Below are positions 54,920 to 64,000 of a DNA stretch of 64,000 bases, piece by piece. Both the position numbers and the translations under genes were made by a program. The number at the start of each line of letters is the position of its first letter. Within the stretch, counting starts at the first letter, position 1. The notes beneath the pieces are model-generated. The model was not told the DNA's origin. It did no database searches and worked only from the letters and a program-made list of their open reading frames with translations. Source of the stretch: Candidatus Micrarchaeota archaeon (lineage in GTDB: Archaea > Micrarchaeota > Micrarchaeia > Micrarchaeales > Micrarchaeaceae); contig JAJYEJ010000001.1 of NCBI GenBank assembly GCA_021785805.1, positions 1,940-65,939 of the forward strand, in the 5' to 3' direction.

Positions 54920-54954
54920 AGGCGGGCCCGGCGGGATTTGAACCCGCGACCTAC
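54920..54954. repeat. attL: orphan copy of the tRNA-Arg 3' segment
   Basis: aggcgggcccggcgggatttgaacccgcgacctac is identical to 59910-59944. No tRNA 5' half is adjacent. Confidence 0.9.
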
Positions 54955-55005
54955 TGAAGCACTAGAATTTACGCCGTAAATTCCCAAACTAGTAAAATCC
55001 TGCAT
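54920..55005 (-). pseudogene. Int(N): N-terminal fragment of the partitioned integrase
   Basis: The minus-strand ATG at 55005 (an alternative start is 55038) reads MQDFTSLGIYGVNSSAS, then VGRGFKSRRARL across attL, in the same frame used at attR. Beyond att the track ORF (54775-55038) runs on into chromosomal sequence. Confidence 0.65.
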
Positions 55006-55066
55006 TTTACGCACCCTCAATCGAACCCGACATTCCAAGCAGAATATGAAAACTGAACCTTAAATA

Positions 55067-55798
55067 TCAAGCGGGTTCAGTTTTGGTGGCCTGCTTCGTC
55101 TCATTTTGGTTTTTGAATTGTTGCCTGGCTTCTTTTGGAACTTTTGGCCAGTGGAGTTTTTCTAAAATGTGGCTCGCTTTCGCTTTAAAAATCGGATTCA
55201 AGTCAAAGTCTTGTTTTGTCGCCAAAATTCCTAGCGTCGTGCAGAAGAATACAACGATATTTGCCCCATGTTCTTTTAATAGGTCAAATACTACCTGCGT
55301 AGTGGCCCCACTAGTCGTTGCATTGTCAAAAACAAGAATATTTTTGCCTGTGAGCTCTCTAGTAACGTCTAAAGAGTCTTTAATGTTTAGAATCCTCTCT
55401 TCCTTTGTTTTAATCCCATGCTGCGCCGCTGTAGTCCGTATGCGTTTTATTGTGTTCGTATCTACAGGCACATGAGTTTTTTCGCCAAATGTTGTAGCGA
55501 GCGAAATCATATTTTGATTGATTGTGTCCTTTTCATGTTTCGGTATCACACAGATAAGGTCAAAACTTATGTCATCTTTGAATCGTTCAACATAGAGGTT
55601 ATAAAAACGATTTAAAAAATAGTCTGAATCATTTCCGTATTTGTAGAAGTACACCGCTCTTTTGGTGAAAGGATCATCTACTGTACTCTTTGGCACATGG
55701 TGCCCAAGTCCAAAAACAGGAACAACTTTGTTGCAGTGCTTACATTTTTGGCCTCTGTAGTACGAGTATTCGTATCCGGGTTCTATCTTGTTCATCAT
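55067..55798 (-). CDS. ComF-like phosphoribosyltransferase-fold protein with an N-terminal Cys/His cluster
   Basis: PRTase loop ILVFDNATTSGATT. The preceding RIRTTAAQHGIKTKEERILNIKDSLDV fits the ComF pattern (R....Q..l....R..N....F.v). The N-terminus has CKHCNK...GLGHH. Confidence 0.65.
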   Translation of the reverse strand: MMNKIEPGYEYSYYRGQKCKHCNKVVPVFGLGHHVPKSTVDDPFTKRAVYFYKYGNDSDYFLNRFYNLYVERFKDDISFDLICVIPKHEKDTINQNMISLATTFGEKTHVPVDTNTIKRIRTTAAQHGIKTKEERILNIKDSLDVTRELTGKNILVFDNATTSGATTQVVFDLLKEHGANIVVFFCTTLGILATKQDFDLNPIFKAKASHILEKLHWPKVPKEARQQFKNQNETKQATKTEPA

Positions 55799-55894
55799 CC
55801 CTACCTACTATACATCTTTTTTGGTCGCCCATCATCCTCGCCTATCGCCTTCTACTTAATGCTTAGGGGAACAAGTATTTAAAGATTTCCTTCT

Positions 55895-55925
55895 ACAATA
55901 TATTGTGTTTTATGCAATATATTGC
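55895..55925. promoter_or_regulatory. two 12-bp perfect palindromes in the divergent comF-like/dprA intergenic region
   Basis: acaatatattgt (55895-55906) and gcaatatattgc (55914-55925), 19 bp centre to centre. A tatttaaag TATA-like box lies at 55876-55884. Confidence 0.5.
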
Positions 55926-55964
55926 ATTCATGTGTTTAGGTGAATTTGGTGTTGGTGTTGGCTT

Positions 55965-56882
55965 GTGGGCGTAGCGTGGGAACTATCTGACGAAGAACTC
56001 GTTAAATGGCTTAAACTAACCGTTGTCAAAAGTGGCCTTGGCCCGGTTAGAATTCAGAAGCTTTTTACAACCTTTAAAAATCTAAGCGGCATTTACAACG
56101 CAACAAGAGCAGAGTTACTTGATAGCAGGATAGTTAACGAAAAGATAGTTGACAGTTTCGAAAAGCTAAAATCTGCGAATGATAGTAATTTTTACCAGCT
56201 AATCGAAACGTGCCGTGAAAATAACTTTAAGGTTTTTACCTATATAAATAAAGATTATCCGGAAAAGCTCAAAAATATCCCATCGCCGCCGCTGACCTTA
56301 TATCTTTCAGGCGACGAAAAAATAATCAGCAGTTTCCCATCAATTGGGATAGTAGGGACGCGTGAACCATCCAAACAGGCAAGAGATTTGGCCTACAGCT
56401 ATAGCAAATCGCTCAGTGATCGTAATATAACCGTAATTAGTGGAGGAGCAATAGGGATTGATACTGCTGCGCATTTTGGTGTTTTAGACTCTAAATATAA
56501 GAAAACAATATGTATTCTAGCATCTGGATTTTTACAGCCTTATCCGCCAGAAAACAAAGAACTTTTTAAAAATATAGTTGAAGCGGGGGGATTACTTATA
56601 AGTGAGAATTCACCAAATTTCCCTGGCACTAAAATATCATTAGTTCAAAGGAACAGAATAACTTCTGGTTTGGCTGACGCTATCTTCATAGTTGCTGCAA
56701 AGGGGACTGGAGGTGGGCTAGAGCAAGTCAAAATAGCAAGTAAACAGCGCAAACCAATCTTCTGCACAAAACTTAATCCTGACATAATACCGAATGAAGG
56801 AATAAAGATAGCCATAGAGCAATACAAAGCCATAGAAGTAGAAAATGTTGATCAGCTGGTAAACTACATACACTCTGACTGA
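55965..56882 (+). CDS. dprA: DNA processing protein DprA/Smf
   Basis: YPEKLKNIPSPPLTLYLSG, IGIVGTREPS, VISGGAIGIDTAAH, YPPENKELF, LLISE and LVQRNRITSGLADAIFIV follow the DprA Rossmann-domain consensus. GTG start with GGTG upstream. Confidence 0.85.
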   Translation: MGVAWELSDEELVKWLKLTVVKSGLGPVRIQKLFTTFKNLSGIYNATRAELLDSRIVNEKIVDSFEKLKSANDSNFYQLIETCRENNFKVFTYINKDYPEKLKNIPSPPLTLYLSGDEKIISSFPSIGIVGTREPSKQARDLAYSYSKSLSDRNITVISGGAIGIDTAAHFGVLDSKYKKTICILASGFLQPYPPENKELFKNIVEAGGLLISENSPNFPGTKISLVQRNRITSGLADAIFIVAAKGTGGGLEQVKIASKQRKPIFCTKLNPDIIPNEGIKIAIEQYKAIEVENVDQLVNYIHSD

Positions 56883-57118
56883 TGACTGCACAAAACCTCC
56901 GACGGAAGCCAAAAATGTCATATTTTTGTCGTCGAGGTTGTGCACACAAGGTAAACCACTGCGCAGCTGGCTGCACTGCACTTACTGCACTCAAACCTTG
57001 TTAGAAAAGCCGGTCTGACTGCAGTAAAACTCCGTCGAAGCCAAAAAATACCCGATTTTTGTCGACGGAGCACTGACAACAAGGGAAACGAATGCAGTTT
57101 CCGTGTGCAGTCAGTCAG
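56874..57118. repeat. duplicated ~75-nt hairpin modules, ACTGCA iterons and flanking inverted repeats (non-coding core of the element)
   Basis: Module A (56874-56951) and module B (57014-57085) align over their full length. Each contains a long hairpin (56894-56939; 57030-57070). ctgactgatgactgcaca (56875-56892) is inverted as tgtgcagtcagtcag (57104-57118). Confidence 0.7.
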
Positions 57119-57316
57119 TTCCTCGCCTGCTCCGCAGGCTCGTCCCGTCGCTTTTGCCCCGCCTGAAAGCGACCCAAGCTTCTTGATGAAACTTCTTTCC
57201 AAGAAATTTCCATGGGTGCCCTTAAACTGCTAGTTGGCTAGCTTAAACGAGCGTTGGCGAGAACGGAACCGCCCCTCACGTTGGTGAGGGCTGCGGTGGA
57301 GTAAAGGGCAGAGATT

Positions 57317-59071
57317 TTATGTTAAAATAGAGAGAAAAGCAGCAATTACGGTTCTTTTTCTTTCTGTTATGAATGTTGTAAAATCATCATTCAAAAGAGC
57401 ATCGAAGGCAGAAGACGATATAAGATGAGTCTCTAACCTATCACGCATTTGTCTTTCTGTGAGCCCAAATTCACGCATAATCTCATTAATGTATTGTGAT
57501 GGTTTCTTTGCTCGGATGTAATTTCTGTTTGTGTCAGCATCCAGCAGTGTCATATTAAGGATTGAATTGATTTGGTCATCAGATGCTCCGAACTCTCGCG
57601 CTCTGGACTCTGGGAAAATATGATGTGCATCTATTGTGTTAAATGTCGTTATTGTATTCTGCACAAAATCTCGACCGCCTTTTAAGGCTATTAGACATAG
57701 GATGCCTTTGTAGAGTGCATCGGATCCAGTAACTAATTGTTCTAAAGTAATCACGTTGGGATTCGCTAGATTCGCTTTAGCCTCTATAACAACTTGTGGG
57801 AGACTGCTGTTATCGGTAAACCATCTATTAACTGCGTTATAATCGATATATGTTTGTGTATCTGTTGAGCCTGCGTATGCATGTGTTATTATTGCCGACC
57901 AGTACCATTTTATAATCTTTTTGTTCATTTCAGCTCTTGCTCTTCCTTTTGCTTTGGAGAAAAGAGCCGCTAGTATCGGTAATGATTGCCTAAACGGAAC
58001 AAGATTTCTAGTTAGAACACCAAACCCGTCATTAACGCTACGGGTTTCTTTCAACATTTTGAGCATAGACTCAGTGTCTCCTACTGCTGCAGTCCAGTCA
58101 GTTTCAAATTTTCTTGAAGATAAATCAAGAAGTTCATCACTTTTAACGGGCTTGCCTCTTTTAAGAGCTAAAGTTTGAACAATGTACAATGGAAACCTAT
58201 CATTTCCTTCGCTAAATTCCTTTATCAGAGCATTGTTCCTAGCAGAAGTCTTCCATAATTCGCGAGGTTTTATATTATGTTTTATCATACGAGCGTTTAA
58301 CAAATCAAACGTCGTCAGATCAAGTCCCATAGTATTGAGTTTCTCAAATATTTTTGCAACATTACCTATGCTGATTTCGGAAGGTAGTTTTATTATGGGA
58401 ATTTCGAAATCTTTGAGCAGAAACTCAAGATGTTTCGAAACAGAATCAGAAAGCTTGTTTGCGTTTTCAGGAGTAGAATGTTCTACCGTCTTTAAAAATG
58501 CTTCGAAATCATAACACCATCGACTTACTGTTTCCAGTTCTTTGAGTGGGAATGTTCGTGTAGCAAATTGATTTTGTTTGTCATTAAGATTTTTTCTTGT
58601 TATCTCATCATCAGTATAAGAAACAACTAATTTTTCATCCTCTACCTTTGCTTTTCCATCGAGTTTTAACATTTCTTTAATGTCGATAAAGAACCTTATC
58701 GGTTTTTTCATGCCCCATAACGGTATGTTCGGAGCTTTTATAACATAATAAAGTGCCGATACTCTTTGCTGTCCATCTAAAATCAAATATCTTGGGTTTG
58801 TTGGCAATCGCGTTCCATATATTGGTCCGAAGGCCATATCAGTAGTTCTATCAATAGACCAGAATAACAAAGAACCAATATAGTAGCCTCGTAGCATTGA
58901 GACTAGAAGGTCAGTAACATTAGATCTTCGCCACTCAAATTCTCTTTGAAATTCAGGAATGCCCAAATCATCGTTTTCTATATAAGCCAGAATGTCTTTG
59001 ACTCTTTTTTTCTCGGGTTCTTCCAATCTCATTAATGTACTTGGTGTTATTCCTGGCATATAGACCGCCAC
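57317..59071 (-). CDS. DUF262/DUF1524 protein (GmrSD-like type IV restriction endonuclease family)
   Basis: The N-terminus has IPEFQREFEWR...ILDGQQRVSALYY (DUF262, ParB-like). The C-terminus has DAHHIFPES...LLDADTNR (DUF1524, His-Me finger). An alternative ATG start is 59059. Confidence 0.8.
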   Translation of the reverse strand: MAVYMPGITPSTLMRLEEPEKKRVKDILAYIENDDLGIPEFQREFEWRRSNVTDLLVSMLRGYYIGSLLFWSIDRTTDMAFGPIYGTRLPTNPRYLILDGQQRVSALYYVIKAPNIPLWGMKKPIRFFIDIKEMLKLDGKAKVEDEKLVVSYTDDEITRKNLNDKQNQFATRTFPLKELETVSRWCYDFEAFLKTVEHSTPENANKLSDSVSKHLEFLLKDFEIPIIKLPSEISIGNVAKIFEKLNTMGLDLTTFDLLNARMIKHNIKPRELWKTSARNNALIKEFSEGNDRFPLYIVQTLALKRGKPVKSDELLDLSSRKFETDWTAAVGDTESMLKMLKETRSVNDGFGVLTRNLVPFRQSLPILAALFSKAKGRARAEMNKKIIKWYWSAIITHAYAGSTDTQTYIDYNAVNRWFTDNSSLPQVVIEAKANLANPNVITLEQLVTGSDALYKGILCLIALKGGRDFVQNTITTFNTIDAHHIFPESRAREFGASDDQINSILNMTLLDADTNRNYIRAKKPSQYINEIMREFGLTERQMRDRLETHLISSSAFDALLNDDFTTFITERKRTVIAAFLSILT

Positions 59072-59095: not shown

Positions 59096-59909
59096 CTATT
59101 TATATGTTTCTCTAAAGTTGTTATTTGTGAATACAAATTCGATTGACCGATATAAATCCTCTTTGTCTTTAGCGATATATCGCATCGTAGTTTCCGGTTT
59201 GCAATGTCTCGCGAATCTACTCGTCAGAACTACATTACCATTCGTCGATTTAGCAAATTTAGTAACCGCATAGTGGCGCAGACTATGTGTCGTTAATCTA
59301 TGTAAAGCACGTTCTTTCTTATTCGGATAACTTTCTTCTGAATAGCCGTATATTGCATTGAGTCCAGCCTTCTGTACCGTTTCTCTGAATACCTTTCTAA
59401 CATAGTTCTGTTCTATGTACTGCTGTCTGTTGTGGTTATTGTCGTTCTCTTTGAAGAAGATATGTCCATCCGCTGCCTTTATCCCATCAGTATTCTTGTT
59501 GATAAACTCTATCGTATCTCTAAAGAGATCCACAGGTATCAACAAAGAATCCAATTTTCTTGACTTTTCGCTCATTATCGTCAGTTCCCTCTTCTCGAAG
59601 TCGATGTTGCTTACGTGCAACTTTGTGGCTTCTCCGATTCTGAGGCCCAGAAACGCCTGGAACTTGAAAAGAAGCCTGAACTTGTCGTTCTTCACGTTTC
59701 TGAGGAAATGCTGCAGCTCCATTTCCGTAAAACCCTTGTTTATGGTTCCATACTTTGTCTCTCTCGGCCTCCTGAACCTTCTTTCATAATTTTCTCTCAA
59801 GGTCTTTCTCAGCTGCTCAATCTGCCCTTTCGAGAACTGCCTGCTTGATGCGTCTACTTGCTCTAAAACCCTTCCGAAATCGAACCCGACATTCCCTCTC
59901 TTAAGCTTT
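59096..59909 (-). CDS. Int(C): catalytic portion of the SSV-type tyrosine integrase
   Basis: Catalytic residues lie in LRIGEA (R), HSLRH (HxxR), ARH and MRY (Tyr). The frame is open upstream of the track start (TTG 59800), through attR, to a stop at 59984-59986. Confidence 0.8.
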
Positions 59910-59944
59910 AGGCGGGCCCGGCGGGATTTGAACCCGCGACCTAC
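59910..59944. repeat. attR: att copy forming the 3' part of tRNA-Arg
   Basis: Identical to 54920-54954. Confidence 0.9.
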
Positions 59945-60025
59945 AGCTTTCTCCTTCTTTTGATTAAACCTTTTTCAAAAGTTCATTAGAAGGCTGCCGC
60001 TCTATCCAAGCTGAGCTACGAGCCC
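59911..60025 (-). tRNA. tRNA-Arg (anticodon UCU) with a 38-nt intron at the canonical 37/38 position
   Basis: Hand-folded: acceptor GGGCTCG/CGGGCCC, D arm GCTC..GAGC, anticodon stem GCAGC/GCTGT with loop CTTCTAA, T arm GCGGG-TTCAAAT-CCCGC. The intron segment AGAAGG pairs with CCTTCT around the anticodon, as expected for a bulge-helix-bulge substrate. Confidence 0.85.
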
Positions 60026-60051
60026 ATATGCATGACAGTATATTCATTGGC

Positions 60052-60063
60052 AATATATTTATT
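60052..60063 (-). promoter_or_regulatory. TATA box for tRNA-Arg
   Basis: Minus-strand aataaatatatt is centred about 33 nt upstream of the tRNA 5' end. Confidence 0.35.
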
Positions 60064-60340
60064 ATGCGGTGTCTGCCACTCTGGGCTTCGCACAAACATA
60101 TTTATTGATAGCCGATTCTAATACCTTCAACTGTACAGTGATAGAGTGGCAAATTATTCTTTTTAGGTCTTCATACAGAGGGCCAAACCAGAGGCCATAG
60201 ACTGGCAGAACTTCATAAATTCCGTGTTCCAGTTCGACATGGACTTTTCGCTTGAGATAGAGTTCGGTTCCGAGGTGAGCTTCCATCTCAACTCGAGAAA
60301 GGACCTTTCGCCACTTGCAACGAAGATCCTTCCTTTCGTG

Positions 60341-60670
60341 TTAAGGGCTGAGGATAGGAGCCCATGAATTGCTCACTGCGGAGAATATCGCTATGTGCCC
60401 CTTCTTCGTACTCTGATAGTAAGCGACAGTCGCAAGGACTACCAAGAAGCCGGTTATCAGGCCGAGTATCCAGTCGTATGCCGATATTGGCGCTGGCTTG
60501 TACAGAAACGCGAAGAACACCACTGCTATCATCACAAGTGCGAGTATCCTTGTGAGCATGACGGTCTCAAGGCTGCCTATCTTCCTCGATGTAAGCGGAC
60601 CCCAGTATGATGTCAAGCCCCAGGCTAGCATGGATATTATGCCGTATATCAGGGCAGATGCGAAAGGCAT
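60341..60670 (-). CDS. single EamA-domain (DMT superfamily) membrane protein, possibly truncated
   Basis: 109 aa with four hydrophobic helices of EamA type. Full-length DMT transporters carry two such domains. Confidence 0.45.
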   Translation of the reverse strand: MPFASALIYGIISMLAWGLTSYWGPLTSRKIGSLETVMLTRILALVMIAVVFFAFLYKPAPISAYDWILGLITGFLVVLATVAYYQSTKKGHIAIFSAVSNSWAPILSP

Positions 60671-60708
60671 GAGCCTATTTATAGGCGAATATTATTAAGT
60701 TGGTGTCC

Positions 60709-61542
60709 TCATGTCCTGATGAAGCCTATCCCTGCGCCGGATTGGGGTTTGCGGACGTTAATCTTAAAGAAGCGCTTCGTGTTCATAGTAAGGACCTCCG
60801 CTGCCCGCTCCACGCTTATCATCTTTGCTTCGGCTATCATGTGGACCGATAGCTCCACGCTCTTCGGCGTAGGCCCTACCGCAGGGCTGTCGCTCTCCAC
60901 CATAAGGTTGTCTATTGATACCTCCTTCATGATGCGGGACCGCTTGCTGGAGGTTATCGGAGGTATCGATATCATGTAGCCGAGCCTCTCGGCCTCCTTT
61001 GCCTGCTGCACATTGCCCTCGAAGAAGTGGAGGTGGACCTTCTGTGCGTCTTTTGCCTTTAGCGTTTCCATTACGTCGTCAAGCGAATCTCTCGAATGGA
61101 CGCTGACCGGCAGCTTCAGCTCTGTCGCAAGATCGATGAACCTTTCGAATACAGTCCTCTGCTTTGCCACCAGATTGAAGTCTTTCGCATGGAGATAGTC
61201 CAGGCCTATCTCCCCTATGGATACCACCCTCGACCTGTTGTCCCTTATGAGCTTGATGTTATTCTCTATCTCGCTGTCGAGGTCATCATCAGGGGTCTGC
61301 ACCGCATTCTGCGGATCCATGCCGAGCGCAGGGAATATGTGCTTTCCGTCGCTTATCTCCAGCGTGCGCTTGTTGGTAGGAAAGCTCACCCCATTCGACA
61401 CCATGGTCATTATGCCGTGCGCTATCGCATCCTGTATTAGAGACTGGTCCTTTATCGCATCGAGATGGCAGTGTGCGTCAGCCATCTCATATAGCTGCTT
61501 GACATCCTTGACCGCTTTCCCCTCTACGATTTTTGTTGGCAT
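60709..61542 (-). CDS. TatD-family metal-dependent hydrolase
   Basis: ADAHCHLD, IGEIGLDY, VSVHSRDS and HLHFFEG motifs. An alternative start is ATG 61485. Confidence 0.85.
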   Translation of the reverse strand: MPTKIVEGKAVKDVKQLYEMADAHCHLDAIKDQSLIQDAIAHGIMTMVSNGVSFPTNKRTLEISDGKHIFPALGMDPQNAVQTPDDDLDSEIENNIKLIRDNRSRVVSIGEIGLDYLHAKDFNLVAKQRTVFERFIDLATELKLPVSVHSRDSLDDVMETLKAKDAQKVHLHFFEGNVQQAKEAERLGYMISIPPITSSKRSRIMKEVSIDNLMVESDSPAVGPTPKSVELSVHMIAEAKMISVERAAEVLTMNTKRFFKINVRKPQSGAGIGFIRT

Positions 61543-61641
61543 GCTATCATTCGTGGAAAACCTGGTTTATATACCTTTCCGAGCCATACCATATTACAAG
61601 ATGCAGATTACTAGGTCTGCTTGTTCTGATATGGTGATGGG

Positions 61642-62661
61642 ATGCCAAAGAAGAGTTCAGATACGTATGGGTCAATGTTGAAGATGAACATGCTTTCTAT
61701 GCTGCTCAATATAATATTGGCCATAGCGGTGGTGGTTCTCGTGCTCGAGATACCGCATATAGGGACAACAGCAGGGAGCGGCTTGGTCAGCAGTCCAAGC
61801 CATAATTCGTCTGTGAACAACACCGGAACAAGCCAGTATTCCGGCACAACGGCGAACATAGACCAGCCATTGAACGCCACGGAACTCGCCGTGATAAACA
61901 ATGCACCGCTGAATTATTATGAGACTGCCGGCGAAATGCTGCTTAATGGAACCCTGACAAACCAGGTGGTCCTCGAACCGCCAAGCAAGGTCTCCCACTT
62001 CTCCCCATATCTGTTTGATGGAAAACCGTCGGTGATCTACGTTGGCGCGCTCTCGTGCATATTCTGCGGAGAGAACAGGTGGGCCATGGCGCTGGCGCTA
62101 GGCAAGTTCGGAACGTTCAACAACCTTTACAAAGGGTATAGCAGCTTTGGCGATGGTGATATACCTACGCTATACTTTAGCGCCTACAACTATACCACAC
62201 CAAGCGGTGCAGCATTCGGGAATAGCTACAACAGCAGCCTGATAAACCTGTTCACTGCGGACTATGAGTCCCCCGTTACGGCTGGTTTTGAGTTCCCGAG
62301 CACCGGCATACCATACTTCGTACAACATGCGCCTAACGCGACATACCGCTCAGCCATGGAGTTTATGAATAGCACGAATGAATTCAGCGGTACGCCTTTC
62401 TCGTACTGGGGCAATTCCATAGTGAATGGAGCTGATGCGGTAATCTTCGGAAATACGTCGCAAGGCGCAACGCTCCCGATAGCAGGCATGACTCATGCAC
62501 AGATATTGCAGCAGTTCAGGAGCTTCAATGACCAGTTCGCCTGGTCCGAATATGCCGCGGCCGATGTATACATAGCGTATACCTGCCCTTCTGTGAACAA
62601 CACCGCACAGGTGTGCTCTCTTCCGGCAATACAGACGCTTGAGAGCAGGCTCGGGGTGTAG
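61642..62661 (+). CDS. DUF929-like extracytoplasmic thioredoxin-fold protein, membrane-anchored and sequon-rich
   Basis: N-terminal TM anchor, then VIYVGALSCIFCGENRWAM (CxxC followed by ERW-like), as in DUF929 proteins of acidophilic archaea. Many N-x-S/T sites. Confidence 0.55.
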   Translation: MPKKSSDTYGSMLKMNMLSMLLNIILAIAVVVLVLEIPHIGTTAGSGLVSSPSHNSSVNNTGTSQYSGTTANIDQPLNATELAVINNAPLNYYETAGEMLLNGTLTNQVVLEPPSKVSHFSPYLFDGKPSVIYVGALSCIFCGENRWAMALALGKFGTFNNLYKGYSSFGDGDIPTLYFSAYNYTTPSGAAFGNSYNSSLINLFTADYESPVTAGFEFPSTGIPYFVQHAPNATYRSAMEFMNSTNEFSGTPFSYWGNSIVNGADAVIFGNTSQGATLPIAGMTHAQILQQFRSFNDQFAWSEYAAADVYIAYTCPSVNNTAQVCSLPAIQTLESRLGV

Positions 62662-62767
62662 TCGTTTCCGTCCGCGCGGCAGAGAGGCTGTGGCCATACG
62701 CTAACATGATTAGCCAAGAAACTTTCCAGGCAGCTGGTAGATCAACGAACCAATAACACGTGATGAC

Positions 62768-63583
62768 ATGGTTGAGGAAAAGCGAGAGGAGAAAGGGCCT
62801 GGTCCTGAGCTGCCAAAAGGAGCGCACCCGTCTTTTCTAAACACTATCAAGCAGAAGGAGCGCATCAGGGAAAAACTCTCTAAGATAAGACACAAGATAG
62901 GGGTCTACAGCGCTAAGGGAGGTGTTGGAAAGACCACCACCGCTGTCAATATCGCATTCACCCTTAGCAGGAAGGGCTTCAGAGTAGGGCTTCTCGATGC
63001 GGACATCGACTGCCCGAACGTCACGATGTTCCTCGGGATGGAAGACGCGAAGATGGAGCCAGTCATGCCGCTGCAACCGCTCACCAAGGAAGGCGTGAAG
63101 GTAGCATCCACGGCCATGCTAGTGGATGAGATAAAGAGACCTATAATCTGGAGAGGGCCGCTAGTGGCGAAGATGATAGGGGATTTCCTTGAGAACACGG
63201 AATGGGGAGAGCTCGATTATCTCATCGTGGACCTGCCGCCCGGGACCAGCGACTCTCCATTGTCGATAATGCAGCTCCTGAAGCTCGATGGGTTCGTCAT
63301 CGTGACGACTCCGCAACGCATAGCGTGCATCAACTCCATAAGGTCTGGCATGATGGCGAAGAGGCTCGGGGTATCGATCCTTGGCATAGTGGAAAACATG
63401 TCGGACAGGAAGGCAAGCAGAAACACCGAGGAAGTGGCAAAGAGCTTGGAAACGGAGCTCATCGGGGTGGTGCCCATGCAGCAGCGTCTTGCGACCCTCG
63501 CCGATGAGGGTAAGGTACCGGTCCTTTCCGAAGATGAGTTTTACGCAGTATACGGAAAAATCGTAGACAGGCTGCCGCGCTGA
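62768..63583 (+). CDS. Mrp/NBP35-family ATP-binding Fe-S cluster carrier
   Basis: Deviant Walker A SAKGGVGKTT, then DADIDCPN and DLPPGTSD. Confidence 0.88.
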   Translation: MVEEKREEKGPGPELPKGAHPSFLNTIKQKERIREKLSKIRHKIGVYSAKGGVGKTTTAVNIAFTLSRKGFRVGLLDADIDCPNVTMFLGMEDAKMEPVMPLQPLTKEGVKVASTAMLVDEIKRPIIWRGPLVAKMIGDFLENTEWGELDYLIVDLPPGTSDSPLSIMQLLKLDGFVIVTTPQRIACINSIRSGMMAKRLGVSILGIVENMSDRKASRNTEEVAKSLETELIGVVPMQQRLATLADEGKVPVLSEDEFYAVYGKIVDRLPR

Positions 63584-63627
63584 TGCGAGCCTTACGAGAG
63601 GAACCCTCTCTGGAGCCCGAGGTAAGG

Positions 63628-63635
63628 TATAAATA
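63628..63635 (+). promoter_or_regulatory. candidate rRNA operon TATA box
   Basis: tataaata lies about 200 nt upstream of the 16S 5' end, leaving room for a processing leader. Confidence 0.3.
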
Positions 63636-63831
63636 CATTTGCTATTAAAACTTCATTACCTATTCTTATGTTTCCATGGCGTAAAACGCCTTGGGCGAAC
63701 AATGAAGGAGGAGGTTCATTGCTGCTTGGCAATGGATACATGAAAATTCCTGTTTGGGATTGGATGTAGTCTTGAGAAGTGTTATAAGGAACCGCAACGA
63801 TTGTCTTTAATAAGCGGCAATCCAGCCATCG

Positions 63832-64000
63832 ACTCCAGTCGATGCTGCTGGAGGACACTGCTATCAGATTTCGACAGCCATGCAAGTCAGCTCAACGGCT
63901 TCGTTGGGCGGCGTACGGCTCAGTAACACGTAGTCAATCTACCGTAGAGAGGCGGATAACCTCGGGAAACTGAGGCTAATACACCATAAGCTAGAGCATC
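63832..64000 (+). rRNA. 16S rRNA, 5' end (partial, continues beyond window)
   Basis: actccagtcgatgctgctggaggacactgctatcag...agccatgcaagtc...ggctcagtaacacgt...ggataacctcgggaaactgaggctaatac aligns with the conserved archaeal 16S 5' domain. Confidence 0.9.

Follow-up and report, generated by a model that had tools for sequence, protein, structure and literature searches.

What might a phosphoribosyltransferase (PRTase) gene and a dprA-like gene do side by side on a small archaeal mobile element? The question is raised by a 64,000-nt stretch of DNA from Candidatus Micrarchaeota archaeon (GCA_021785805.1, contig JAJYEJ010000001.1, positions 1,940–65,939 of the forward strand; hereafter the window, to which unprefixed coordinates refer), in which two divergent open reading frames (ORFs), 55067–55798(−) of 243 aa and 55965–56882(+) of 305 aa, are separated by a 166-bp gap. 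A preliminary description had offered three roles for this pair: loading of single-stranded DNA (ssDNA) for the element's own establishment, a competence-like module, or a SLOG plus PRTase defence module beside a type IV restriction nuclease. The third option fits best, but the named system to which it leads, ShosTA/PsyrTA, had gone unrecognised. ShosTA and PsyrTA are two-gene systems in which a DprA-like antitoxin counteracts a toxin with a PRTase domain, and they protect E. coli from phages (10.1101/2022.05.11.491447; PMC9122126), including T7 and lambda (PMC9122126; PMC11961720). We consider it probable that the pair in the window is an archaeal member of this class of toxin-antitoxin (TA) anti-virus modules. 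Kimelman 2012 is reportedly among the descriptions of the ShosTA/PsyrTA pairing. Systems of this kind are already known, as is their occurrence in archaea, so that no new class of system is involved: ShosTA is among the most frequent archaeal defence systems in censuses based on hidden Markov models (HMMs) (10.1101/2024.10.26.620412; PMC11291487) and has been reported in Asgard archaea and haloarchaea. The earlier remark that none of the three roles had been described for archaeal integrative elements was thus too strong.

The gene at 55965–56882(+) encodes the presumed antitoxin, a DprA-like/ShosA-like protein of 305 aa composed of a SAM domain (approximately residues 9–85), a DprA Rossmann fold and a C-terminal helix (residues 295–304). 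The ORF, its motifs (GIVGTREPS, SGGAIGIDTAAH, YPPEN and QRNRITSGLA) and a Pfam DNA_processg_A score of 184.6 bits against a cutoff of 29.6 confirmed that this gene belongs to the dprA family, as had been proposed. Its score with the TIGR00732 equivalog model, 172 bits, fell just below the curated cutoff of 191.15, and that with PRK10736 was 121.6 (cutoff, 495). The PADLOC ShosA model (PDLC03961) matched nearly the full length at 188.2 bits (E = 4.9e-56), and the PADLOC PsyrA model at 91.6 bits. Comparison with solved structures pointed the same way: by sequence the best was ShosA (8ZVA/9VZO), at 91.6 bits versus at most 80 for canonical DprAs, and a 64-sequence profile of the archaeal clade of DprA-like proteins, run against the PDB, scored ShosA at 160 bits and canonical DprAs at 145–148. 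The AlphaFold (AF2) model (pLDDT 95.6) showed the SAM domain, the Rossmann fold and the C-terminal helix, and Foldseek placed ShosA (8zva) first by E-value (4.6e-19), with canonical DprAs at template modelling (TM) scores of 0.80–0.87 and a range of 0.7–0.87 for DprA and ShosA structures overall. In the sequence alignment both ssDNA-binding arginines of ShosA were kept (R139 as R133, R234 as R229), a third position was changed from R261 to K256, and the ShosA dimer residues L181/F182 were aligned to D175/S176. The nearest relatives fell into about 100 clusters at 41–59% identity, each of about 310 aa, including proteins from Parvarchaeum, Marsarchaeota, Woesearchaeota, Anstonellales and Asgard, whereas bacterial DprAs bearing a winged-helix tail were at most 37% identical. 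We also considered a LOG-type identity for this protein and rejected it, as LOG structures reached a TM of only about 0.4 in Foldseek and the weak LDcluster4 (SLOG) match (29 bits) was confined to residues 126–174.

The divergent gene at 55067–55798(−) encodes the presumed toxin, a short ComF/ShosT-type PRTase of 243 aa with an N-terminal β-hairpin hood, a phosphoribosyl pyrophosphate (PRPP) loop, ILVFDNATTSGAT, and a conserved C-terminal DFDxNP...HWPK extension. The ORF and the presence of ILVFDNATTSGATT, a type I PRTase PRPP loop, bear out the previous reading of this gene. Its best curated matches were of the ComF type (GntX, 38 bits; TIGR00201 comF, 33.3 bits), both far below their cutoffs (233.55 for TIGR00201), and PADLOC returned PsyrT at 47 bits, limited to positions 553–679 of the 689 in that model, and ShosT at 38.9 bits, with half of the ShosT model covered. 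The AF2 model (pLDDT 79) consisted of a β-hairpin/helical hood and the PRTase core only. Its top PDB matches in Foldseek were ShosT structures (8ZVD, E = 1.7e-7 and TM 0.54; also 8ZVB and 8ZVC), with H. pylori ComF (7P0H) at a TM of 0.54; 207 columns were aligned to the PRTase half of the 412-residue ShosT. By sequence, PDB searches with the single protein and with the family profile gave PRPP-loop matches only and did not find ComF. We rejected a salvage-PRTase identity: ShosT and ComF structures outranked PurF and salvage PRTases, and both family scores and structure comparison grouped the protein with the ComF/ShosT/PsyrT type and not with purine or pyrimidine salvage enzymes; it was a grouping with salvage enzymes, together with a pairing that did not recur, that the preliminary description had named as refuting its proposal.

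The PRPP loop of this PRTase reads D158-N159 (FDNATTSGAT), not the canonical DD(I/V)xTTGxT. We surveyed the loop among relatives ranked by a PRTase profile search (P-numbers; L-numbers label comparison loci and contigs). From P0001 to P0042, DN occurred in 36 of the 37 proteins with a detected motif and NN in one (P0032), five short or partial sequences giving no match; from P0043 onward every detected motif was DD, except in P0049, a partial fragment of the DN family. A word-indexed search returned 11 clusters of the PRTase family and an exhaustive profile search 27 representatives at E <= 1e-30, beyond which the profile merged into the large clade of ComF-like PRTases; the DN family was absent from IMG/VR viral contigs. 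In a 12-sequence alignment of the close family the flexible-loop residues R119, H127, R135 and N138 were invariant, which argues for a functional rather than a decayed active site. Among more distant DD-type relatives, P0057, P0065, P0074, P0076, P0090 and P0101 are proteins of 600–1400 aa made up, in differing combinations, of helix-hairpin-helix (HhH) DNA-binding modules, pentapeptide repeats and a ComF-like PRTase domain at the C-terminus. Apparent RadA/Mre11 fusions among these distant relatives were rejected, the matches stemming from the HhH module.

The resemblance to ComF raises the possibility that the pair serves ssDNA handling of the ComFC/DprA type, the PRTase-fold protein passing on ssDNA and the DprA-like protein loading RadA, for DNA acquisition, recombination or repair (for example, scavenging by DPANN archaea) and not for defence. 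We regard this explanation as unlikely. It is favoured by GntX and ComF being the best curated matches of the PRTase and by H. pylori ComF being structurally as near as ShosT; moreover, ComFC and DprA interact physically in bacteria (PMC9005727), and in ultra-small prokaryotes a role in competence has been ascribed to dprA and comEC (PMC9938205). On the other hand, the PRTase has no 4-Cys zinc finger, the feature by which ComFC is defined and which DNA internalisation requires (PMC9005727). The N-terminal Cys/His cluster noticed earlier does exist, as a single CxxC (C19, C22) followed by H33/H34, but it is only partly conserved in the 12-sequence alignment (C19 and H33 nearly invariant, C22 and H34 not) and is not a ComFC-type finger. 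Likewise, DN replaces the DD loop, the TIGR00201 score of 33 bits is far from the cutoff of 233, and in a transposon screen for archaeal transformation neither DprA nor ComF was implicated, and ComEC was noted to be unidentifiable in archaea (10.1101/2022.08.17.504363). Together with the presence/absence pattern of the pair as cargo, described below, these observations weaken the proposal of a competence-like module.

In bacteria, comFC normally lies apart from dprA; adjacency is the signature of ShosTA/PsyrTA. Leaving aside contigs L018–L020, which are 100% identical to the window and provide no independent context, we found the PRTase and DprA-like genes adjacent in every locus with enough sequence, in about 20 distinct archaeal contexts that were mostly from DPANN; the recurrence of the pairing, for which a neighbourhood survey had been suggested, is therefore established for every locus examined. 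The linked loci span DN-type and DD-type short PRTases and come from Micrarchaeota, Marsarchaeota, Woesearchaeota and others, and in every sufficiently flanked locus the DprA-like gene lies within about 13–240 bp of the DN-type PRTase gene. Viewed from the DprA-like side, a short PRTase stood alongside in 4/4 sampled contexts: a DN-type protein in Marsarchaeota, DD-type proteins of 209–213 aa and about 24% identity to the window PRTase in L033 and L035, and P0192 in the fourth. All four gene arrangements were seen, toxin-then-antitoxin being the commonest and the others convergent, divergent (the window and Marsarchaeota) and antitoxin-then-toxin. Such strict linkage without fixed co-transcription fits an indirect, type IV mode of neutralisation. 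Neighbours of the defence type were found elsewhere, namely type I restriction-modification and Shedu genes in L007 and a methyltransferase with VapBC at the P0192 locus, and no ComEC or ComFA uptake genes adjoined the pair in the local neighbourhoods examined.

Two side observations concern these loci. An Lhr-type DNA repair helicase gene lies a few kb from the pair in two unrelated DPANN loci (L033:1-788 and L045:2768-5803), which may be a coincidence or reflect a link to DNA repair. Decayed copies of the module were seen in Anstonellales (L016:6001-7395) and in Micrarchaeota (L015:4817-6155); the L016 PRTase is split over two frames, and the DprA-like genes of both loci lack the first 85–88 residues or so, corresponding to the SAM domain.

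The gap between the two window genes contains a control region for the DprA-like gene (55876–55924, plus strand), a putative operator or, alternatively, a 10-bp hairpin, in which a TATA-like box, TATTTAAAG (55876–55884), precedes a perfect 10-bp palindrome, CAATATATTG, that occurs twice, at 55896–55905 and 55915–55924, 9 nt apart. These are the only copies in the 64 kb of the window, where 0.04 were expected. The Marsarchaeota pair carries CATTATAATG twice with identical spacing. Under strict scan criteria, the 230 kb of 22 distinct loci contained only 15 tandem palindromes; ten of them lie 10–55 nt upstream of a DprA-like start, versus about 0.2 expected, and two more are in the pair's own promoter region. 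Non-degenerate tandem sites were present in the window and in L001, L008, L011, L014, L031, L035, L038, L039, L043, L045 and L050, and in seven further loci (L004, L007, L012, L013, L041, L049 and L052) the second copy was degenerate. The two-site architecture thus precedes the DprA-like gene in about 19 of the 22 distinct loci, across phyla and whatever the gene arrangement, and the loci without it were two with decayed genes (L015 and L016) and one overlapping operon. The consensus is two copies of yAWTATAWTr separated by 8–9 nt and located downstream of a TATA-like box, with two sequence classes represented by CAATATATTG and CATTATAATG. A scan for sigma-70 promoters and intrinsic terminators was uninformative, those models being unsuited to an archaeon.

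Because the element sits in the intergenic gap of toxin-then-antitoxin loci, the DprA-like gene has its own promoter there. Because the element also travels with the module across phyla and onto a mobile islet, the factor that binds it is probably encoded by the module itself. The sequence pattern suggests that the tandem element is probably an operator through which the module regulates itself, as TA loci do; alternatively, it may represent multiple TATA boxes or form a 10-bp hairpin, either in ssDNA or in the leader RNA.

We then asked what kind of DNA carries the pair. It lies on a 4,990-bp element that is delimited exactly by an empty site from the same population: contig L024 joins window position 59910 to 54954 through a single 35-bp copy of the core, with flanks 99.8% identical. 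The left border, attL (54920–54954, minus strand), is a displaced duplicate of the 3′ end of a tRNA-Arg gene and forms a direct repeat with attR (59910–59944), the last 35 bp of the intact tRNA-Arg(UCU) gene at 59910–60025(−). The tRNA proper spans 59913–60025(−) and is interrupted at the canonical position, 37/38, by an intron of 40 nt; ARAGORN detected no tRNA at either border of the island, and the intron-containing gene was recovered with the Rfam tRNA model (55.9 bits). Beside it, a tyrosine recombinase (integrase) of 234 aa is encoded at 59096–59800(−) (Pfam Phage_integrase, 52.5 bits; partial XerA-type match). An integrase next to a tRNA gene, borders that both carry the tRNA 3′ end as a direct repeat, and relatives in which the site is empty together identify a tRNA-integrated element, so that the earlier statement that the pair is carried by an archaeal mobile element is upheld. 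So is the presence of a type IV restriction nuclease next door: the gene at 57317–59071(−) encodes a 584-aa protein of the GmrSD family (DUF262/DUF1524) with Pfam GmrSD_N at 108 bits, a weak GmrSD_C match (18 bits), a His-Me-type motif (DAHHIFP...N), a full-length PADLOC match to HEC-05 and a further match to PDC-M55C.

The tRNA-Arg site exists in several states within one population, being empty in L024 and L026, occupied by the window's island in L029 and occupied by sister islands with other cargo in L023, L030 and L027. Three backbone parts are common to the sister islands, namely the att core with the integrase (86–88% DNA identity to the sister-island integrases at the same site), a non-coding segment B at 56885–57312 (72–77% identity with L023 and L027) and the left end, segment C, at 54955–55086 (95% identity). 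Segment B separates two slots whose cargo differs. Slot 1 holds the GmrSD-type gene in the window, a type IIG restriction endonuclease-methyltransferase (PADLOC, 361 bits) in L023 and, in L027, a gene whose product has 250 aa; slot 2 is occupied in the window by the PRTase/DprA-like pair, in L023 by genes for a 234-aa and a 182-aa protein (the latter with a faint PIN match) and in L027 by a DUF3800 gene. The cargo of L030 is that of L023, a type IIG restriction endonuclease-methyltransferase with the 234-aa and 182-aa proteins. Alternative cargo and empty sites imply that the pair is an optional, exchangeable cargo of a defence-type hotspot and is not needed for integration of the element. Its status as cargo beside a restriction nuclease, and its absence from sister strains and sister islets, also speak against ssDNA handling of the ComFC/DprA type.

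The same population data bear on an addiction module, that is, on the idea that the pair mainly keeps the 5-kb islet in place through the death of cells from which it is lost, with protection against viruses a secondary effect, if any. We think this improbable, although the element is small and integrase-bearing, excised/empty and alternative states occur in the population, and the tight linkage and operator-like palindrome of the pair are TA-like. Most family members are chromosomal with no integrase nearby, sister islets persist without the pair, and the characterised relatives are strongly phage-protective (PMC11961720; PMC9122126); addiction and defence are in any case not mutually exclusive. 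That the pair is instead a nucleotide- or DNA-modifying two-enzyme module without TA logic, or protects and loads ssDNA for the establishment of the element, seems highly improbable: membership of DprA in the SLOG superfamily with the weak LDcluster4 match (29 bits, residues 126–174), a DN loop that hints at altered chemistry and distant PRTase relatives fused to HhH DNA-binding and pentapeptide domains speak for it, but the DprA-like model is at TM 0.7–0.87 to DprA/ShosA and only about 0.4 to LOG-type hydrolases, the family is absent from IMG/VR viral contigs, and sister elements with the same backbone and integrase occupy the same att site without the pair, which contradicts the establishment role put forward in the preliminary description.

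How might an archaeal module of the ShosTA/PsyrTA class work? E. coli ShosT is a 424-aa protein whose N-terminal domain is pyrophosphatase-like and whose C-terminal domain is a PRTase; its toxicity requires PRPP binding, a D331A/D332A mutant being non-toxic, and it perturbs purine metabolism and damages DNA (PMC11961720; PMC12961424). ShosA, with its SAM domain and DprA fold, binds ssDNA via R139 and R234 and RecA via K200 and R206, and it neutralises ShosT without binding it, a type IV logic (PMC11961720; PMC12961424). By analogy, the short ComF-like PRTase would bind PRPP through its conserved flexible-loop and PRPP-loop residues and perturb nucleotide or DNA metabolism, leading to DNA damage or replication stress. 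The DprA-like protein would bind ssDNA through the conserved Arg133/Arg229 patch and would act against the damage by an indirect route, probably through recruitment of RadA, the recombinase of archaea, instead of RecA, and without sequestering the toxin, as in type IV systems. The toxin might then be released when a virus shuts off host expression or fills the cell with ssDNA intermediates, and the infected cell would be arrested or killed. For the window pair, a toxic PRTase, its neutralisation by the DprA-like protein, the link to RadA, autoregulation and protection from viruses are inferred by homology to the characterised systems.

Several observations weigh against an assignment to this class. 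All archaeal members considered here are known from sequence alone, and the PRTase lacks the N-terminal pyrophosphatase domain of the only characterised ShosT. Its sequence match to E. coli ShosT, obtained with the family profile against the PDB, is only 16 bits and covers the PRPP loop only, and its structural match to ComF (TM 0.54) equals that to ShosT. Asn takes the place of the second acidic residue in the PRPP loop, and in E. coli the D331A/D332A mutant is no longer toxic. In the DprA-like protein P195 and F201 stand where ShosA has its RecA contacts, K200 and R206, which are thus not conserved, and archaea use RadA, not RecA. The outcome that the preliminary description had named as refuting, a protein without DNA-binding or RecA-interaction residues that clusters with LOG-type hydrolases, did not arise, the protein being of the DprA type. 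The PADLOC ShosT model is unspecific, matching 86/86 diverse ComF-like PRTases, of which TIGR00201 comF matches 81; PsyrT likewise matches 81/86 of this clade sample. Since the three models match nearly the same relatives, HMM names cannot split ComF from ShosT, and gene context is the discriminator. That context is not uniformly of the defence type, as several DPANN genomes have housekeeping neighbours (Lhr helicase, RNR, HisIE and PurD); the concentration of relatives in DPANN, often amid housekeeping genes and twice beside an Lhr helicase, also lends some weight to ComFC/DprA-type ssDNA handling.

Within the ShosTA/PsyrTA assignment, the archaeal short-PRTase/DprA-like modules may form a distinct, RecA-independent ShosTA lineage, a proposal that we put forward tentatively and with more doubt than belief. 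The DprA-like protein would here act as ssDNA sensor, RadA recruiter and autoregulator on the tandem dyad site, the DN-type PRTase would have an altered chemistry or substrate, and the genes would be linked without being co-transcribed. The tandem dyad could serve as an operator in double-stranded DNA and possibly as a hairpin in ssDNA or RNA. With indirect neutralisation the two genes need linkage and not co-transcription, which would explain all four arrangements.

Other features of the islet and its surroundings complete the picture. Segment B, which is hairpin-rich, has counterparts at L023:10750-11138 and L027:4405-4498 and contains no conserved ORF; it differs by indels, including a 37-nt insert in the window, and forms several hairpins, one stem showing a compensatory change (CCCTCAC/GTGAGGG versus CTCCTGC/GCAGGAG). 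A hairpin unit, CGACGACAAAAAT...ATTTTTGGCTTCG.CGG, is repeated within it. The segment had no Rfam match, and neither JGI metagenome contigs nor IMG/VR contained an exact copy of its invariant motif; the segment may be a structured RNA or may serve the element in recombination or regulation. A direct repeat of 18 nt, AATCGAACCCGACATTCC, is present just within each end of the island, at 55019–55036 and 59878–59895, its order relative to the 35-bp att core being mirrored. Read on the opposite strand, AATCGAACCCGACATTCC resembles a tRNA T-arm, and the repeat may be an arm-type site of the integrase or a relic of an earlier integration. The integrases of the window and the sister islands differ by 12–14% in DNA sequence, the chromosomal flanks by less than 3%. 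Outside the islet, the window (1–54900 and 60030–64000) is archaeal chromosome with a GC content of about 0.51, encoding an A-type ATP synthase, archaeal GluRS, RtcB, SRP54, TBP, GGR and DNA gyrase A/B, whereas the PRTase, DprA-like, GmrSD-type and integrase genes all lie within an island of lower GC content (about 0.39). The closest relatives of the island proteins are found in DPANN and Marsarchaeota, which suggests, as far as sequence relationships go, transfer from archaeon to archaeon.

In the literature searched we found no description of the short DN-type toxin lineage, of the missing pyrophosphatase domain and RecA-contact residues, of linkage free of arrangement, of the tandem-palindrome element or of a two-slot tRNA-Arg islet with cargo swapping at the population level. 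If the assignment to the ShosTA/PsyrTA class is right, the window pair would be a compact and experimentally tractable archaeal ShosTA that works without RecA and without a pyrophosphatase domain in its toxin. It would put to the test what the bacterial mechanism can and cannot do without, and how the DprA fold couples ssDNA sensing to the recruitment of an archaeal recombinase. The swapping of cargo at a single tRNA-Arg site within a population is, moreover, a clear-cut case in nature of a minimal archaeal integrative element that carries a defence hotspot.

Set against known systems, the pair shares with ComFC/DprA of bacterial transformation a PRTase of the ComF-like clade, whose hood β-hairpin adds to the PRTase sheet, a feature also of H. 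pylori ComF, and a DprA fold with its DNA-binding residues kept. By contrast, it has neither the 4-Cys zinc finger nor the DD loop, scores below the ComF and DprA equivalog cutoffs and consists of adjacent, mobile genes with no uptake genes nearby. In PsyrTA/RqlHI a RecQ-like helicase-PRTase toxin is paired with a DprA-like antitoxin; the window PRTase matches the C-terminus of the PsyrT model (47 bits) and the DprA-like protein matches PsyrA (91.6 bits), but the window PRTase has no RecQ-like helicase region. With the defence hotspots of mobile elements (P2/P4, Rousset 2022; tRNA-integrated islets) the islet shares a fixed site, a conserved integrase backbone and cargo that is exchangeable among close strains; it differs in being archaeal and very small (5 kb), in targeting an intron-containing tRNA-Arg gene and in having two slots parted by a conserved hairpin-rich non-coding spacer. 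The comparison with ShosTA (E. coli APEC O1/KTE181; PDB 8ZVA-8ZVD, 9VZO) is the closest. The differences are that the window toxin has 243 aa, no N-terminal pyrophosphatase domain, a DN instead of a DD loop and almost no sequence similarity to E. coli ShosT; that the antitoxin lacks the RecA-contact residues K200/R206 and the long disordered C-tail of ShosA, in a host with RadA instead of RecA; and that the genes are divergent, not an operon, in a family that tolerates any arrangement and has a conserved tandem palindrome before the DprA-like gene. In both, however, a PRTase-domain gene adjoins a SAM/DprA-fold gene in a defence-island or mobile-element context, ShosA and ShosT are the best solved-structure matches of the window proteins, and the ssDNA-binding arginines are kept.

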